IMG/VR virus record: IMGVR_UViG_3300045988_094016
Coordinates: 1-41,370 of that record
From: a virus
Length of the DNA: 41,370 nt
Reading direction: 5' to 3' (one strand)
Shown: positions 6,673-41,370 of the stretch, in pieces
Layout: every line of letters begins with the position of its first letter
How positions within the stretch are numbered: position 1 is the first letter of the stretch
Translations under genes and position numbers: made by a program
The notes under the pieces: generated by a model
Database searches by the model: none
What the model saw: the letters and a program-made list of their open reading frames with translations, nothing else
What the model was told of the DNA's origin: nothing

Positions 6673-6708
6673 AATTACGTTTAATTAAGTAATTTTTAAG
6701 ATAGTTTG

Positions 6709-6717
6709 TGTTATAAT
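6709..6717 (+). promoter_or_regulatory. Promoter, extended -10 TGTTATAAT (first of a tandem pair)
   Basis: The context ttaagatagtttgtgTTATAAT is repeated about 90 bp downstream. Confidence 0.5.
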
Positions 6718-6799
6718 ACTATCATAAATAAAGAGAGATTAACTCTTTAGAATAAAAAATCTGAATTAAGTTTAATTAAGATAGATTTAAGCTAAAGTG

Positions 6800-6808
6800 T
6801 GTTATAAT
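6800..6808 (+). promoter_or_regulatory. Promoter, extended -10 TGTTATAAT (second of the tandem pair)
   Basis: TGnTATAAT lies 38 nt upstream of the ATG at 6846, with the RBS AAGGAG. Confidence 0.5.
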
Positions 6809-14266: not shown

Positions 14267-14405
14267 AATTAGCGCATTGCGTGAGCGTAGAGCGATTTAA
14301 ATTTTTAGCTTGATTAATTCATCGAGTTAAGATTAAAATCGCTTTAGCGCGCAATGCTATTAAGAAAACTTTAATATTAAATTAAGTTAAAGTTAAGTAA
14401 GATTA

Positions 14406-14414
14406 TGTTATAAT
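14406..14414 (+). promoter_or_regulatory. Promoter, extended -10 TGTTATAAT
   Basis: Upstream of the HTH gene and downstream of an imperfect hairpin of about 90 nt at 14274-14357. Confidence 0.5.
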
Positions 14415-14464: not shown

Positions 14465-14713
14465 ATGGATAAAGTTATAACTATCCAAAGTTACATCGAA
14501 AACCTTGAGAACCAGGGTATGACAGGTGTAGAAATCTCTAAACATTTGAGGGTATCAGCCTCTATGATTTCTACTTATAAATCAAATAGGTATAATATTA
14601 GCCTTAAACAAGCTAAGTTAATCTATAAACTTTATGGAGTAACTATACACCCGTATAGTGAAGCTAGTTTAAAAGCCGAACTAAATCTTGACAGGGAGAA
14701 CGAAAATGCCTAA
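14465..14713 (+). CDS. Small HTH DNA-binding regulator (XRE-like), 82 aa
   Basis: Helix-turn-helix GVEISKHLRVSASMISTYKS. The RBS is AAGGAG. Confidence 0.6.
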   Translation: MDKVITIQSYIENLENQGMTGVEISKHLRVSASMISTYKSNRYNISLKQAKLIYKLYGVTIHPYSEASLKAELNLDRENENA

Positions 14714-30204: not shown

Positions 30205-30624
30205 TTATTGCTCCAAGTTGTTAATCTCTACAACTGTTTTCTTATCCTTAATTAAAGCAAATACTTTAGCTAAAGTTTTAACGCTATTATAAACACCTTT
30301 ACTATCGTAGCTATCTCCTAGTAAAATACACCCTTCTGTATCTATAGGATAATTTCCTTGATGTATAAGAATACGCCTAGATTTAGAAACTAGCTCATTA
30401 TGAAGTGTAGGCATTAGTTTACCATTATATTTAGGACTAGGAGTCCAATCTAAATTATACAACCCTTGTGGTATACGTCTATCTTTATTAGGAGTTGTAG
30501 TATCAGGGCCTGCAGGCTCTAAGCTAAATCCAGACATTATTTTAACGCCATCATCGCCAACAACATAAAACTTACCTATAGTTCCGTCGTTTATATCCAT
30601 AAACCTATCAATTCTTAGTTTCAT
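30205..30624 (-). CDS. Candidate endolysin: L,D-transpeptidase (YkuD)-like His/Cys peptidase fold
   Basis: ILIHQGNYPIDTEGCILLG resembles the YkuD catalytic motif H.G...(S/T).GC(I/V). It is the only lysis-cassette gene with an enzyme-like motif. Its start overlaps the upstream stop as ATGA, and it has an RBS. Confidence 0.4.
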   Translation of the reverse strand: MKLRIDRFMDINDGTIGKFYVVGDDGVKIMSGFSLEPAGPDTTTPNKDRRIPQGLYNLDWTPSPKYNGKLMPTLHNELVSKSRRILIHQGNYPIDTEGCILLGDSYDSKGVYNSVKTLAKVFALIKDKKTVVEINNLEQ

Positions 30625-30806
30625 TTTATACCTTTCTCTACAAATTTAACGCGCTCTCTATGCTCTCCCGTTTTACCTATGTTAAAGCTTTCAACAGGCC
30701 TATGGTAACCCATCACACGTGTATAAACTACACACTTAGTGCGTTTATTCTCCATTGAAGCTAATATCTCTTTATCAGAGAGGTCTGTCGCTATCGCATT
30801 CGCCAT
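30621..30806 (-). CDS. Stand-alone NrdD C-terminal glycyl-radical domain mini-protein (candidate spare part for class III RNR)
   Basis: TRVMGYHRPVESFNIGKTGEHRERVKF aligns with the NrdD C-terminal region as I recall it, RVCGYLGSP...FNAGKQEEVKRRVKH, with the radical Gly in RV.GY conserved. The RBS is AAGGAG. Confidence 0.55.
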   Translation of the reverse strand: MANAIATDLSDKEILASMENKRTKCVVYTRVMGYHRPVESFNIGKTGEHRERVKFVEKGIK

Positions 30807-32326: not shown

Positions 32327-32851
32327 TTAGAATATCGGCTGCCAGCCAATGTTTAAAATTTCTACGTCTTTAACTCTAAACTCTATAAAATTTTGAGTAG
32401 AGTCCCAATTTAGAATGCACTGAAACCGAATATATTTACTACCTTGGGCTCTAAACTTATTCCTGCTTATAGTCCCTTCATCATCTACCCATTCCCACAG
32501 CCAAAATTTACTATTTCTACTAACATTTTGAAATCCATATACAGAATTAGTATCAAGACCACCTGCAGGGATAGCATCAGCTAACATAAGCTCATAAGGT
32601 GGATTTTTTAAAGCAGAGCTTTGCATACCATCCCTTAAATTCCAATTTTTAATCCATTGATTAGAATCTTGGTGAAATCTTACAGCCATCCAGATATTGA
32701 AAGCCTTTATATAGCGACCTACCCATTCTGGTTTAAATCCATATCTAAATGCTTGCTCTGTGCTACCTATATTAGATAGGGCTGCATTATCTCTAACTTC
32801 ATATTGAGATACAGAGCTTCCACTGCATCCAATCATAAATGACCCATTCAT
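32327..32851 (-). CDS. Hypothetical tail-associated protein, 174 aa
   Basis: Immediately downstream of the tail fiber, with TAATG coupling. Possibly a fiber assembly or receptor-binding accessory protein. Confidence 0.4.
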   Translation of the reverse strand: MNGSFMIGCSGSSVSQYEVRDNAALSNIGSTEQAFRYGFKPEWVGRYIKAFNIWMAVRFHQDSNQWIKNWNLRDGMQSSALKNPPYELMLADAIPAGGLDTNSVYGFQNVSRNSKFWLWEWVDDEGTISRNKFRAQGSKYIRFQCILNWDSTQNFIEFRVKDVEILNIGWQPIF

Positions 32852-34875
32852 TACGCACGCCCCATAGCTATATACCCATTATTGCATTTAAAATATGCAA
32901 ATGTTTCGATATTTTGTAAGCCTGTCGGCACTTGCCTAAATTTCAAGTCGCTATGGAACCCGGTTATCTTTTCTGCTCCTATTATAACTAGGATACCATT
33001 TTGACCTAGTTCAACATTAAACAATGTTAAAATCCCATTACTAGTTATAGTAATTAACGCGTTATCAGCTATGGACATATCTATAGAAGGGCTACCGCTT
33101 TCCCTTCTATATACTTTAGGAGTATTCCTACCATTCAATCTCATAAAAGCATTTAAATTAAGTGCATTACTAAATTTAGCGTAACTAACTCCTTTAATCT
33201 GATTACCTGAAAAATAAGCTATTTCAGGGTTAGCTGAAAATCCAGAGTCATCATTATGGCTAGAAACAAATAAAGAGCTAAAAACAGCACCTGAGGCAAA
33301 TATATTAGCCGAGCTATCTCTAAGAACTAAAGTATTAGCTGATGAATTGATATTAGGAGCATATCCTCTTAATGTTTGGGCATCACTACCTGCATTAATT
33401 GCTTGGACTGCTTTATCGTATGCTACTTTTACCGCATAAGCACTAGCTGCATTATACCTATCTGTTGAGCTAGTGCTATCTATAATCTTAGTTATACCTG
33501 CAGTTGATGAACTAGCTGAAACCGCAGACCATTTACTATTAGCTAGGGTATAAGCAGCACTAGCCCTGTCGTAAGCTTGTTTTACCGCATTAGGAGTTGC
33601 AGCTCTATCAGTCCTGGTATCATTAACTCCATCTACTAATGTTGTTAATCCCCATTGTCCAGTCGTTGCATTTTGAGGAGTGTATTTAGCATTAGCTGTA
33701 TTAAGAGCTTTTTCAGCTTCTTTATAAGCTAGATTTACAGCTTTAGGAGTTGCGGCCATAGTTTCATTAGTGCTAGTTACAACGCTAGATAATGTTACAA
33801 AACCCTCTGTAGTAGTAGTTGCGCTTTCTCCTGCTTTTAATAACACATAATTAACACCGTCCCAACTATAAACTTTATATGTGCTTTTATCTAGATATAT
33901 AGTACTTTCATCTCCTGTAGTCGGGAATGATGCTTTATTAGAATAACCTGAAACACCTCCAGAACCTTTATCCCCTTTAGGTCCTTGTGGTCCAGGATTA
34001 CCCGCAGGACCTTGAGGACCACGAGGACCAATTGGTCCTACTGCTCCTATCTGACCTGCTGGACCTATAGGACCTACTGGTCCTTGTAGCCCTGCTGGTC
34101 CTTGAGGTCCAACATCCCCCTTAGGTCCTTTGGTCATCGACATCCATTCAGCCCGGCGTTGCTCCGCTGCTTCCCAGTATTCTTTAACCTTACGCTCTGA
34201 CTCTAGTGCTTTATCCTTAGCCGCTATAGCGTCCTCACTAGCCTTTTTAATTTCAGCTATTGTAGCTTGAGCTAATGTTAATTTAGCCGCTATATCGTCA
34301 AATTGAGCTTTAGCCTCTGCTATTTTACTATTTAACTGCTCTCCTTGTTTTACAGCATTAGCTATATCTTGTAAAGCAGTATCTATTTGTGCTTTTACCG
34401 CTTTTACTTGAGTGTGCAGGGTATTAACATCTGTTAAAACCTTATTAACAGAGGTTAGTATAGTGCTGGCTTGGGTAGCAGCTGCATTAGCTCTACTAGC
34501 TGCTTGATTAGCTTCATTTACTTTACCTTGAACTGTAGCTTTTATTCCTTGCAATTCATCTAGGGTTTGTATTGCGCTAGCAACCTTAGATGAAATTTCA
34601 TTTTTAAGGTTTTCAACATCACGCTTAATAATTTTAGCCTCGTTGTTGTTATTAGCTAATTGATTTATTAATTGCTCTGCTTTAGCTAAATCAGCCTGAA
34701 CACTATTTAAGCGTTGTCCCAGCGTTTGGGTGCTATCGTATGGGAAATTTTGTGCATTAATTTTTGTGCGCGTTACCTGAACTCCGCCACGAGTCTGAAC
34801 TACAGACCCTACTCCTATCTCCATATCCTCCAAAGTCAATTTATTTACATAAATTTCTTTTATATTAGATGCCAT
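32851..34875 (-). CDS. Tail fiber with a collagen-like (Gly-X-Y)18 segment
   Basis: N-terminal coiled-coil. The Gly-X-Y run, [13 protein letters not shown]...GPKGDKG, spans residues 253-308 (nt 33964-34131). The C-terminus has three copies of a (T/S)..AV..AY..A repeat. The ATG at 34875 has the RBS GGAGA. The track start TTG is at 34887. Confidence 0.75.
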
Positions 34876-35722
34876 ATTCGTCTCCAAAACCTGTTCTATA
34901 CTGCACTACGTGTTCAGCTATATCCTGATAACTGTTCTTTTCGTGCTCCTGGATATTCTCCAACTCCGTCTTATACTTGTTTATAAACAACATACCTTTA
35001 TTGATATTTTCTCCGCGAGTATCGTCAAGCAATAGCATACCTGAAATGTAATAAACTAGAGTTGTTTTAAACATATCATCTAGGTCGATATTATCGCTTT
35101 TATTTACAACCGCCTTAGGTCTTTTAACATACTTAATATCTAGTAGATTAAATCCATCAGCCATAGACGTCATTGTGCCGTTAGGCTGCATACCGTTAGG
35201 GATATAAATAATTTGTAAGTTATTATCTACTTTAAGTCCTGTAATTATACCATCAAGATTATCCCTAGTTATACCTGGGATATCTATGGCTATGCCATAA
35301 GTTCCATCACTAGAAATAAAGTTATTTAGTTGTCGGTAGTTTGTATATACTGGCTCCTCTAATAGAGGGTATAGAGTTAAATCTCGTGGATTATTAAGAT
35401 TATACACAACAGATTTAAGTTGGGTGCCAACTTCCTCTTCCCATTCAGAGAGTTTGTCCATCGAACTAAATGACTTTACATCTACGGGCCTGTTATTACA
35501 TCTAACTCTTAGAAGTTTAATGAAATCAGGGTCTGGTATTACTAATTTACGTTGATATGGAACTATAGGTAGAACTAACTCTACCTTGTTTATATTAACC
35601 TTGCGAGCGAGGTCATCTAGTCCCTCGTTAATTAGCTCGATTATCCGAACATCGGTAAATTTTGTATTAGGGACATCACCAACCCTATACCTAACGCTAG
35701 AAATTAAACTAGATACTAACAT
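34865..35722 (-). CDS. Virion structural protein (adaptor or tail), 285 aa
   Basis: Position between the head genes and the tail fiber. Confidence 0.4.
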
Positions 35723-39740: not shown

Positions 39741-40191
39741 CACGGAACCTATCCACCAAATTCTGTATAGCTATGTTTATTACCGGAGTATTATCCTTAG
39801 GCCTCAAGTCTTTGTAAGTCGCCTCTATCGCTGTAACCGAACTTATTAAATCCTTAAGCTCCTTAGTATCTCCAACCATCGACATCATATCTAGGGCATA
39901 ATCAACCGCCTTCTCTTTGAACGAACTGATTTTCTCCAAGACTCGGACTACGCTCTCGTCCTGCTCAGGCTCTTGTGATGCTGGAGCTATAGTAACTACA
40001 GCAGGAGCTAGTGGTTGCTGAGGTGCCGGCAAGACCGTAACTCTTGGTCTAGTAAGCCACTCAGGCTCTCCAATCTGCTCCTTTGTAACTTTATACTTAT
40101 CTAATACTACTTCTATCTCCGACCCCGCTTCATACTCTAACTTTATAAGGTTTAAGAGTGCGACTGGGACCGGCTTCGGTGCTTTAGCCAC
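39730..40191 (-). CDS. Putative terminase small subunit
   Basis: 153 aa, immediately upstream of and overlapping terL. GTG start with the RBS AAGGAG. Confidence 0.4.
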   Translation of the reverse strand: MAKAPKPVPVALLNLIKLEYEAGSEIEVVLDKYKVTKEQIGEPEWLTRPRVTVLPAPQQPLAPAVVTIAPASQEPEQDESVVRVLEKISSFKEKAVDYALDMMSMVGDTKELKDLISSVTAIEATYKDLRPKDNTPVINIAIQNLVDRFRDDC

Positions 40192-40213
40192 GGATACTCC
40201 TTATGGTTTTTCT

Positions 40214-40224
40214 GTAAGTATAGC
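40214..40224 (-). promoter_or_regulatory. Late-promoter candidate motif GCTATACTTAC (minus strand), copy 2
   Basis: Its 3' end lies 22 nt upstream of the TerS GTG. Confidence 0.4.
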
Positions 40225-40604
40225 TAAGTTTAACTTAAGCTTTGCTTACGTGAGCTAATGATAACTATAGTTTGCAGGCCGTAGTCGATATTCTATTAAG
40301 TTTAATTAAAATTGTGTTGCAATTAAAGTTAATTGAATAATAATTTCGTGAAAATTTTTTTATTATTTTGGTGGTATAAGTTACACGCTGTTATATTGGA
40401 GTGTGGCGTCGTGAAAATGGGTTATATTTCGTTGAATTAGGTTATTATTCCATTGAATTAGATTTAATTAAATATTAATTCCGAAATGGAGTTGCGGATT
40501 TTGGAGTGTTCTGTCGTCGAAAACTCTCGCATCACTTTGTCGCACCCACTCCAAATTCCCAAAGGCCTCAAAATAATCTCGATATTTTCACGCAATCTCG
40601 CAAA

Positions 40605-40656
40605 GTTTCACGTGAAACGCTAATTGATAACGATTATTATATTTAATTTAATTTAA
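40605..40656. repeat. Direct repeat unit 1: palindrome GTTTCACGTGAAAC plus TTGATAA(C/T)GATTATTATATT
   Basis: Nearly identical to 40696-40748. A third partial copy lies at 40749-40774. Confidence 0.7.
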
Positions 40657-40695
40657 CGTCTAGCTTGAAATGCAGTCTGCCACATCGCATTTTAA

Positions 40696-40748
40696 GTTTC
40701 ACGTGAAACGCTTATTGATAATGATTATTATATTCTATTTAATTTAAG
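40696..40748. repeat. Direct repeat unit 2
   Basis: See unit 1. The palindromes are 91 bp apart. Confidence 0.7.
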
Positions 40749-40931
40749 CATTGATAATGATTATTATAATCTACGTCATTATCATAACAACTGCTATTTG
40801 ATAATGTTGCAATTTAAGCGTTTCTTAAGCAAAATTATGCTATTCGCGTAACATATAATATAAGTAATTTTTAGAGCTAGAAAAATATTTTTACAAACGT
40901 TATTTAATTCAGTTTAATTTAAGCAAATTGA

Positions 40932-40940
40932 TGATATAAT
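40932..40940 (+). promoter_or_regulatory. Early promoter, extended -10 TGATATAAT (duplicate of the element at 437-472)
   Basis: aattcagtttaatttaagcaaattgatgatataat, compared with 437-472. Confidence 0.55.
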
Positions 40941-40974
40941 TCTTTCATAAATCAAAAGAAAGAGAGATAATAAA

Positions 40975-41280
40975 ATGCTAGATGATGATAAATATCTAAA
41001 TGCGTTTTTAAAGTTGAATAAACTAAATAATAAGTTTATTCGAGAATATAATCAAAAGATGATAGATTTTGCTAATCAGTCTTTTATCTTTGTTGAATAT
41101 CAAGAAGCAGAGAAATCATTAAGAGATATTCAAGATAGATTATATTTGATAAATGCGATTATGATTAAAATTGCGCATTATTATCAAGTTGATGAATTAA
41201 ATCTAAATGAAATAAGAGAAAATATAAGCAAAGAATTTAAAAGCGTTTATTTAGATGAAATATTAGAATATATCATCTAA
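40975..41280 (+). CDS. First early hypothetical protein, 101 aa
   Basis: ORF behind the duplicated promoter-leader module. No recognised domain. Confidence 0.55.
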   Translation: MLDDDKYLNAFLKLNKLNNKFIREYNQKMIDFANQSFIFVEYQEAEKSLRDIQDRLYLINAIMIKIAHYYQVDELNLNEIRENISKEFKSVYLDEILEYII

Positions 41281-41370
41281 ATTCAGTTTAATTTAAGAGA
41301 TTAGAAATTGAGCTCAATAAGCTAGAAAAATTTTATCTAAATCAGAGTGCAAACTTTGACGAGCTAAAAA

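Follow-up and report, generated by a model that had tools for sequence, protein, structure and literature searches.

What is a perfect palindrome, present twice, doing in the gap between the divergent early and late genes of a virulent phage? The question is raised by positions 40192-40974 of an uncultured viral genome of 41,370 nucleotides (IMG/VR record IMGVR_UViG_3300045988_094016; this whole stretch is called the window below), a 780-bp intergenic region bounded by the start of the TerS gene at 40191 (- strand) and by the start of the first early open reading frame (ORF) at 40975 (+ strand), which encodes 101 amino acids (aa) and has no helix-turn-helix (HTH) domain. The original prediction had read the region as a multi-operator site for a dimeric regulator of the phage and possibly as the place of the genome ends. 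We arrive at a different answer for the palindromes: with a probability of about 60%, they are host-type parS sites by which the partition protein ParB of the host is recruited onto the DNA of a phage that has no ParA or ParB of its own. parS and ParB are the main chromosome-segregation and SMC-loading system in most bacteria.

The palindrome GTTTCACGTGAAAC stands where it had been reported, at 40605-40618 and at 40696-40709, and its sequence equals the 14-bp core of TGTTNCACGTGAAACA, the near-universal parS/ParB site of chromosomes; the window holds no further copy, even at 3 mismatches. Each copy belongs to a direct repeat, previously put at about 52 bp and now delimited as 54-bp units at 40603-40656 and 40694-40747, which are 93% identical and lie 91 bp apart. 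A third, partial block does follow, at 40750-40780. The elements of this cluster, none of them assigned to a strand, are:

40603-40780: duplicated unit, consisting of parS, then a 7-1-7 box, then a TTTAATTTAA tail; its copy number differs among relatives
40604-40619: parS-A, AGTTTCACGTGAAACG, 14/16 against TGTTNCACGTGAAACA, with a perfect 14-bp core
40625-40639: 7-1-7 box, TGATAACGATTATTA, 2 mismatches, 5 bp after parS-A
40657-40672: degenerate third site, CGTCTAGCTTGAAATG; the same alignment position reads TGTTTCACGTGAAACG (15/16) in the relatives L010, L023 and L041
40695-40710: parS-C, AGTTTCACGTGAAACG, again with a perfect core, at a distance of 91 bp from parS-A; carried by the window, L001, L002 and L014
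40716-40730: 7-1-7 box, TGATAATGATTATTA, 1 mismatch, 5 bp after parS-C
40752-40766: 7-1-7 box, TGATAATGATTATTA, 1 mismatch, the third copy

The link to parS came from a full-text literature search with TTTCACGTGAAA, which returned papers on ParB and parS. Published sites read TGTTNCACGTGAAACA in Bacillus subtilis and Corynebacterium glutamicum, AGTTTCACGTGAAACT in Streptococcus pneumoniae, GTTTCACGTGAAAC in Mycobacterium smegmatis and TGTTTCACGTGAAACA in Hyphomonas (PMC7022226), and the ParB of Helicobacter pylori binds TGTTCCACGTGAAACA, a canonical parS (PMC11229316). The window sites agree with the general consensus at 14 of 16 positions and with the pneumococcal form at 15 of 16, and they are 16-bp palindromes of the kind expected of parS, where natural sites tolerate changes at the outer positions. 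Such matches are also well beyond chance: the window has four strand-matches at up to 3 mismatches against 0.44 +/- 0.77 in dinucleotide-preserving shuffles of it (0 of 100 shuffles reach the observed number), and a perfect 14-mer is expected, by an estimate from base composition, about 1.6e-4 times per 41 kb. Half-sites are not enriched elsewhere, with one extra GTTTCAC only in the genome. The Noc-binding site (NBS), consensus ATTTCCCGGGAAAT, has a CCCGGG centre and ATTT/AAAT arms; the window sites, with a CACGTG centre and GTTT/AAAC arms, are not of that type. At least seven motifs of the CGTGAAA kind had been counted in the region. Of CGTGAAA itself the 780 bp contain 7 copies, out of 9 in the window, where 3.15 +/- 1.6 would be expected, but the number is inflated: four of the seven are the two palindromes themselves, and the other three, isolated at 40347, 40410 and 40586, read GTGAAAA instead of GTGAAAC and are not conserved in relatives.

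Relatives were collected by TerL searches, which gave 13 IMG/VR loci and 27 metagenome loci; 22 of these loci cover the whole intergenic region and make up, together with the window, 16 distinct sequences. This comparative set amounts essentially to two sub-lineages plus distant relatives. Some 405 kb of related loci have no parS-like sequence (up to 3 mismatches) outside this intergenic place. Site A is found at the aligned position in 15/16 distinct sequences, and AGTTTCACG.GAAAC at 40603-40618 forms a conservation island amid diverged flanks. The five distinct genomes of the group to which the window belongs carry two perfect-core sites each, but the pair varies: it is A and C in the window, L001, L002 and L014, and A and the 15/16 site at the position of 40657-40672 in L010, L023 and L041. 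This turnover of positions with a kept count suggests selection for two sites. The stretch 40692-40811 is found only in this window-type group.

What kind of phage carries these sites? Bases 1-55 of the window are identical to 41316-41370, which implies a circular assembly with a unique length of 41,315 bp; the cut lies in the intergenic gap that separates the first early ORF, E1 (40975-41280), from the second, E2 (542-1015). The phage is virulent, podovirus-like and about 41.3 kb in size, and its genes form two arms:

40975 through the junction to 20388, + strand: early and replication functions, with a DUF5906 primase, Dda-like helicase, gp2.5-like single-stranded DNA-binding protein, family A DNA polymerase, 5'-3' exonuclease, ThyX, ligase and Hjc-type resolvase
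40191 down to 20395, - strand: TerS, TerL, scaffold-like protein, major capsid protein, SU10-type adaptor, tail fibre, internal virion proteins and P22-like portal

Scans of the ORFs against Pfam or PHROGs found no ParA or ParB domain in any of them, and domain scans likewise found no RNA polymerase, integrase or recognisable repressor module. The sole recognisable regulator is an 82-aa HTH_3 protein with an Xre/Cro-type HTH, encoded at 14465-14713. The parS cluster lies about 2 kb from a putative replication origin at ~1250-1750, placed there by sequence. On the circle, the two arms meet (20388/20395) nearly opposite the cluster; one is 20.3 kb long and the other 21.0 kb, and their genes point away from parS, as they do on a bacterial chromosome.

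The view of the region as a divergent early/late control region is upheld, with a late and an early promoter both mapping inside it. A promoter class of the form TTAAG-N6-TTAAG-N8-TGnTATAAT precedes gene blocks genome-wide on both strands, and a position weight matrix (PWM) built from 14 intergenic instances co-oriented with genes gives 12 strong matches, all intergenic and oriented with the downstream genes; shuffled genomes give 0-1 above score 12. The outer parts of the region thus hold two predicted host-RNA-polymerase (sigma-70-type) promoters of this one phage-wide class:

40217-40238, - strand: late promoter P_L, TTAAGTTAAACTTAGCTATACT, with the -10 element TATACT at 40222-40217; PWM score 28.9; invariant in the 16 distinct relatives
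40899-40940, + strand: early promoter P_E1, TTATTTAATTCAGTTTAATTTAAGCAAATTGATGATATAAT; PWM score 33.4; an exact match to the pattern and conserved, followed by a ribosome-binding site (RBS) and the ATG at 40975

The parS sites are 190-480 bp away from both, and between 40240 and 40805 there is no PWM promoter of the class.

Because of the parS identity, and because the phage encodes no ParA or ParB, we infer that host ParB would nucleate here. The sequence shows the identity with parS, its conservation and uniqueness in the genome, the lack of par genes and the promoter map; ParB binding and every downstream effect are inferred from it. In the proposed mechanism, dimers of host ParB (Spo0J) would nucleate at the phage parS sites, close into clamps bound to cytidine triphosphate (CTP) and spread over the neighbouring kilobases. 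The phage genome could then be handled like a small chromosome and be positioned or partitioned by host ParA, and SMC might possibly be loaded onto it; partition would be relevant during replication or in an episomal carrier state. If ParB does bind, recruitment of the host partition and condensation machinery for positioning or partition is the consequence that we favour, at rather less than even odds, since a heterologous parS is said to suffice, other elements parasitise foreign ParABS systems and the layout is suggestive. Alternative consequences of the same binding would be titration of ParB off the host chromosome, or a ParB-mediated damping of nearby promoters. We speculate further, with considerable doubt, that the genome in a widespread human-associated clade of virulent podophages is built like a bacterial chromosome in miniature: with no partition protein encoded by the phage, host ParB would sit at two parS sites beside the origin, where two equal gene arms transcribed away from it begin, and would recruit host ParA and/or SMC, genomes would be positioned, individualised, partitioned or kept as an episome, and the 7-1-7 box may lock or modulate the clamps or couple them to Fur and iron.

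How would such an arrangement compare with known ones? parS and ParB are normally discussed for chromosomes, for plasmids and for prophage-plasmids with their own ParAB. The phage sites resemble the chromosomal parS/ParB-CTP complex in their identical 14-bp core, in matching 14-15 of 16 positions, in the clustering of two or three sites and in their place, which is close to a candidate origin and where two arms of roughly equal length begin, with genes directed away from the sites; unlike it, they stand on a 41-kb virulent phage without ParA or ParB, and putative binding would depend wholly on a host protein. Lin and Grossman reportedly showed in 1998 that in B. subtilis a single chromosomal parS stabilises an unstable plasmid through the host proteins Spo0J and Soj. 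Such a plasmid is likewise an extrachromosomal replicon with only the site in cis and with ParB and ParA supplied by the host, but it was engineered, whereas the arrangement in the phage is natural and conserved in the clade, and a carrier or plasmid state of this phage is conjectural. The prophage-plasmids P1, P7, N15 and those of cluster-A mycobacteriophages also combine a phage genome with a ParB-type centromere; they are temperate and have their own ParA/ParB and element-specific parS, whereas this phage has neither par genes nor an integrase. A mobile element that exploits the partition proteins of another replicon is the genomic island SGI1, which hijacks the parABS system of IncC plasmids (PMC10954446); that island is integrative and mobilisable and uses a plasmid system, whereas the phage would use that of the host chromosome. 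If the recruitment is real, a lytic-type phage that carries only the host centromere sequence would be a case of centromere mimicry, with a bearing on how phage DNA is placed and arranged during replication, how phages survive as episomes and how they disrupt segregation in the host.

Several points weigh against ParB recruitment. The match to parS was noticed only after the palindrome had already been singled out. In the literature searched we found no precedent for a benefit of ParB recruitment to a lytic phage, and likewise no description of host-type parS on a virulent phage, which may already be known outside the literature covered. The second, L011-type group of relatives has one site only, AGTTTCACGAGAAACA (14/16, with a central mismatch): there is one site per genome in 10/11 distinct sequences, in two variants, of which one matches at 13/16, and lineage L005 has no site at all. 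Because of this single mismatched site, the 13/16 variant and the loss in L005, the parS element is dispensable or differently tuned in the second-group phages. More distant relatives, L013 and the environmental contigs, have no site at up to 3 mismatches. The two groups are 95% identical in TerL and only ~55% identical in the tail fibre (window 32851-34887, - strand), and this tail-fibre split coincides with the split between genomes with two perfect parS and genomes with one imperfect site, which suggests sub-lineages that differ in host range.

The host is the other weak point: two scans of a genome collection yielded none, and a ParB in it is presumed. Enterobacteriaceae and Pasteurellaceae, for example, are not known to have one. 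A TerL scan across 185,579 species genomes gave no match and so no host lead, and parS plus flank has no exact match in the same 185,579 genomes. Searches for homologues of the tail fibre and of E2 returned only metagenomic or 'Caudoviricetes sp.' records. The sole, tentative lead comes from the promoters. The Campylobacter jejuni promoter consensus has -35 TTTAAGTnTT, -16 TTTTTTG and -10 TATAAT (PMC3824568). The phage promoters are similar: they have TTTAAG near -39, TATAAT as the -10 element and, as the '-16 region', a T-rich stretch that ends in TG near -15/-14. This likeness hints at a host among the Campylobacterota. The nearest cultured phages are distant: TerL is ~40% identical to that of Pseudoalteromonas phage PH1, Edwardsiella phage KF-1 and Dickeya phage Amaethon, and the DNA has no match in the phage collection searched. 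The clade is abundant in metagenomes of human-associated origin. A 61-aa ORF at 30621-30806 (- strand) matches only the C-terminal glycyl-radical segment of NrdD, the ribonucleotide reductase of anaerobic growth. Its product could be a 'spare part' protein and would then suggest an anaerobic or facultative host.

Could the palindromes instead be operators of the phage's own? In that explanation, which develops the one put forward originally and which we consider unlikely, a dimeric phage regulator (the 82-aa HTH_3 protein encoded at 14465 or an early protein) would bind them in an early-to-late switch, and the identity with parS would be a coincidence or a deliberate competition with ParB. Such a switch would indeed be expected to have more than one copy of a perfect palindrome set between early and late promoters that diverge, an Xre/Cro-type HTH protein is encoded in the genome, copy number varies among relatives as in operator arrays, and the second-group site, with its different centre (CACGAG), is itself conserved, which would fit a private specificity. 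The palindromes very probably do bind a dimeric HTH protein, and to this extent the prediction stands; yet they overlap neither the -35 nor the -10 element of any mapped promoter, and a random perfect 14-bp palindrome would equal the parS core only about once in 16,384. No regulator gene adjoins the sites; the sole HTH gene is ~15 kb away, and neither motif occurs at that gene's own promoter, where autoregulation would have left its sign; the clade-conserved early protein E2 has, in its predicted structure, no DNA-binding fold. Since the palindrome is the core of parS, the likely ligand is host ParB rather than the protein encoded at 14465. The phi29 p4 switch region is comparable in its divergent early and late promoters, in belonging to a virulent podovirus that uses the host RNA polymerase and in its several sites for a dimeric protein, but p4 sites are phage-specific and overlap or abut promoters, whereas the palindromes here are distant from promoters and identical to a host centromere. 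Nor is this a lambdoid OR/OL operator array, with sites off the promoters and flanking genes that encode TerS and a 101-aa non-HTH protein. That the parS-like sequence does nothing for the phage, being either a neutral palindrome or a fragment of host DNA carried along passively, is hardly probable: its loss in lineage L005 and absence from distant relatives would agree with this, but it forms an island in diverged flanks in 15/16 distinct sequences, it is duplicated, window-type genomes keep two sites despite the turnover of positions, and site plus flank has no exact counterpart in the species genomes scanned.

The repeats might also serve replication or packaging. A part in the replication origin, with an initiator bound to palindromes and 7-1-7 boxes and unwinding in the AT-rich tails, would suit an AT-rich, repeat-laden region at the junction of two gene arms; distant relatives have iteron-like tandem arrays upstream of TerS, and the 7-1-7 motif recurs in the other ORF-free region beside the replication genes. 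We nevertheless hold it to be very unlikely. The units lie 91 and 36 bp apart in 1-3 copies, unlike the repeats of an iteron-type origin; the identity with parS would be left unexplained, and a far better candidate exists. The second ORF-free, AT-rich region, 1.2 kb at 1016-2217, lies directly upstream of the primase module and contains iteron-like arrays: TAATTTGCATCTA occurs three times at 17-bp spacing (1252-1329), and TTGATTTATTGATTT, three times at 1658-1728, faces inverted AAATCA arrays (1582-1614) across a poly-A tract. By sequence, ~1250-1750 with these phased short inverted arrays is thus the candidate replication origin; the region, in which many metagenome contigs break off, further includes a GC-richer island (1900-2100) and several of the 7-1-7 boxes. 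The cumulative GC-skew minimum, near 4-6 kb, is away from the palindromes and is confounded by gene orientation. The suggestion that the region holds a pac or cos signal or the ends of virion DNA, its repeated boxes being TerS sites, has fared worse, and we give it next to no weight. It would agree with the position immediately upstream of terS, with the repeated boxes and the GC-richer invariant core at 40509-40549, and with several partial contigs that end within 40261-40549. These ends are scattered, however, rather than coincident, and circular assemblies, opened at arbitrary points, were obtained for the window and for many relatives. Most of the contig ends examined are at homopolymers or repeats. 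The palindromes number from 0 to 2 among close relatives whose TerS is 80-95% identical, and a P22-like portal makes headful packaging plausible. In phage P22 the pac site is inside the terS gene. The sole base-coincident contig ends are near window 2092 (the starts of L011, L044 and L016, ~2085-2105). The two ends of one 40,668-bp IMG/VR contig abut there, and a separate ENA contig stops at that very base, followed by Illumina adapter. Because adapter also occurs at an arbitrary contig end (L019), ~2092 is only a weak lead to a physical end or cos-like site.

With host ParB as the preferred ligand of the palindromes, the question arises of what accompanies them. A near-identical block had been noted after each palindrome; it is there, but it is a different motif, TGATAA(C/T)GATTATTA, a Fur-box-like 7-1-7 palindrome spread across the clade and 1-2 mismatches away from TGATAATnATTATCA, which we take to be the Fur-box core. 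Boxes 40716 and 40752 agree with TGATAATnATTATCA at 14/15 positions (13/14 specified bases), and 40753-40770 reads as three NATWAT hexamers, GATAAT-GATTAT-TATAAT, so that the sequence conforms to both descriptions of a Fur box (7-1-7, or three or more NATWAT hexamers). In 2.5 kb of non-coding DNA on the early side there are 10 sites at up to 2 mismatches against 0.13 expected from shuffles of the same segments, a 77-fold enrichment. Outside the intergenic region, copies stand at 280, 1169, 1223, 1465 and 1866. Two of these abut promoter-like elements predicted by consensus (280-294 beside a -35 at 297, and 1223-1237 beside a -35 at 1239), whereas the three boxes of the intergenic region overlap no mapped promoter. 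Second-group loci have 3-6 sites each, apart from the primase-side locus L044 with none, and their parS-like site has no adjacent box; L013 has three copies at the homologous position, and in environmental relatives the motif is sparser.

By sequence, then, the 7-1-7 motif is an operator family of its own across the clade, and the candidates for its binder are host Fur, whose box is conserved across phyla, and a clade-conserved phage protein. A phage-encoded binder would account no less well for a motif that relatives from widely differing environments have kept. E2, an early protein of 147-158 aa, adjoins the control region and is conserved across the whole clade. Its AlphaFold model (predicted local distance difference test score, pLDDT, 77.5) has hairpins of helices together with a small beta element that contains Cys; as a regulator E2 was set aside, since it has no recognisable DNA-binding fold and the PDB yielded neither a significant fold match nor a match in sequence. 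Plasmid RK2 offers a model for the pairing of the two motifs: its KorB is a ParB-family clamp that works with KorA at adjacent OB and OA operators. There too a ParB-type palindrome lies a few bp from a second small palindrome within a promoter-rich control region, and parS and the 7-1-7 box might by analogy form a cooperative silencing module, a possibility to be set against the fact that proteins, sequences and host dependence all differ.

The presence of host-type parS on phages may be broader than this clade. More than 120 IMG/VR viral contigs among the matches listed (L051-L170) carry the perfect 16-bp parS TGTTTCACGTGAAACA, some with 3-6 clustered copies; contigs of note are L098 (sites 1886 and 2442), L093 (site 5333), L071, L111, L056 and L097. 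At least two of them are genuine phage DNA, unrelated to the clade and with intergenic sites, namely L098, with a P22-like portal, TerL and two sites, and L093, which is podovirus-like and 41 kb long; no ParB is encoded within their visible flanks. Perfect parS in unrelated phage contigs implies that the phenomenon may be general and under-described.

How is the rest of the intergenic region built? Conservation across the 16 distinct sequences is very uneven: 40192-40342 is essentially invariant among relatives, and 40812-40856 and 40900-40940 are again nearly so. The region had been called free of ORFs, and in the relevant sense it is: three mechanical ORFs of 43-46 aa exist, but relatives have frame-breaking indels and no start codon, and with no conserved reading frame these small ORFs were discarded as genes. 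Besides the promoters and the parS cluster, the region contains the following (no strand unless given):

40239-40342: block upstream of P_L, near-invariant, conservation 0.83-1.00 in the 16 relatives and above that of flanking coding DNA
40346-40500: variable segment of repeated modules, each an AT-rich TTGAATTAGATTTAATT-type box and then a GT-rich box, with TTGGAGTGTGGCGTC at 40396
40501-40553: inverted repeat TTGGAGTG/CACTCCAA, enclosing two invariant GC-richer boxes
40509-40517 and 40535-40549: these invariant boxes, GTTCTGTCG and CTTTGTCGCACCCAC, which are conservation islands
40805-40860, + strand: invariant promoter look-alike with TTAAG boxes, TGC and TATTCG instead of TATAAT (TTAAGCAAAATTATGCTATTCGCG); PWM score 19.6, conservation 0.96-0.99

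Within the block at 40239-40342, two TTAAG-type boxes form an inverted repeat that is 89% complementary, with its arms at 40289-40307 and 40321-40339; by sequence, the block is a candidate binding region for a late activator. The variable segment shows indels and extra copies, its copy number varies among relatives (conservation 0.47-0.85), and several metagenome contigs break there. The direct repeat of TTGGAGTG...GAAAA reported earlier is real, though its first copy lies at 40396-40417, one base off, and agrees with the second, at 40501-40523, at only 76% identity over 25 nt. The element at 40501-40553 occurs once in the window, and a related box, CTTTTGTCGCCCGCCCC, is found in the relative L013 (TerL 70% identical). 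Its stem (40501/40553) has a few compensatory, two-sided changes on the - strand, in a comparison of only 7 sequences. A structured RNA was rejected, as consensus folds are weak and the late-leader fold has a z-score of only -2.2, and the window has no Rfam families or tRNAs. The idea that the conserved core is a paralogue of the GC-rich island at 1900-2100 was dropped as well, with alignment scores within the shuffled range.

The promoter map, together with the 7-1-7 family, is a usable regulatory annotation for abundant uncultured human-associated phages. P_L lies ~15 bp upstream of the TerS RBS, AAGGAG (40202-40197), which precedes the GTG start at 40191; its variant GCTATACT, without TG, is the same as the element at 38135-38113 upstream of the scaffold and capsid genes. 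In P_E1, TGATATAAT lies at 40932-40940 with the -10 element at 40935-40940 (+ strand). The repeated boxes 'AATTCAGTTTAATTTAAG' are the upstream half of the promoter class and not operators; 'GCTTACGTGAGC' at 40244, considered as a third operator, proved to be the upstream TTAAG-type box of the late promoter. The look-alike has the full upstream architecture at 40805-40846 and occurs once in the window. Elements like it, TATGGTAATCGCGC, were seen in distant environmental relatives as facing inverted pairs (L035 2743-2838, L036 2004-2161). Further promoters of the class, as examples, are:

231-253, 450-472, 2161-2183, 6695-6717, 6786-6808 and 14392-14414, + strand
26885-26863, - strand

The distant relatives L026, L031, L035 and L036 (TerL 49-58% identical) retain the divergent layout of TerS and early genes around an intergenic region of 0.6-1 kb, and each has one tandem array upstream of TerS: 16 bp x6 in L035, 29 bp x5 in L036, 26 bp x6 in L031 and 49 bp x3 in L026. 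On the early side of the window, 278-325 is a perfect sigma-70 consensus promoter (TTGACA-17-TGCTATAAT) with a TTGATAATCTCTATCAA palindrome abutting its -35 element, an arrangement that is conserved in all relatives.

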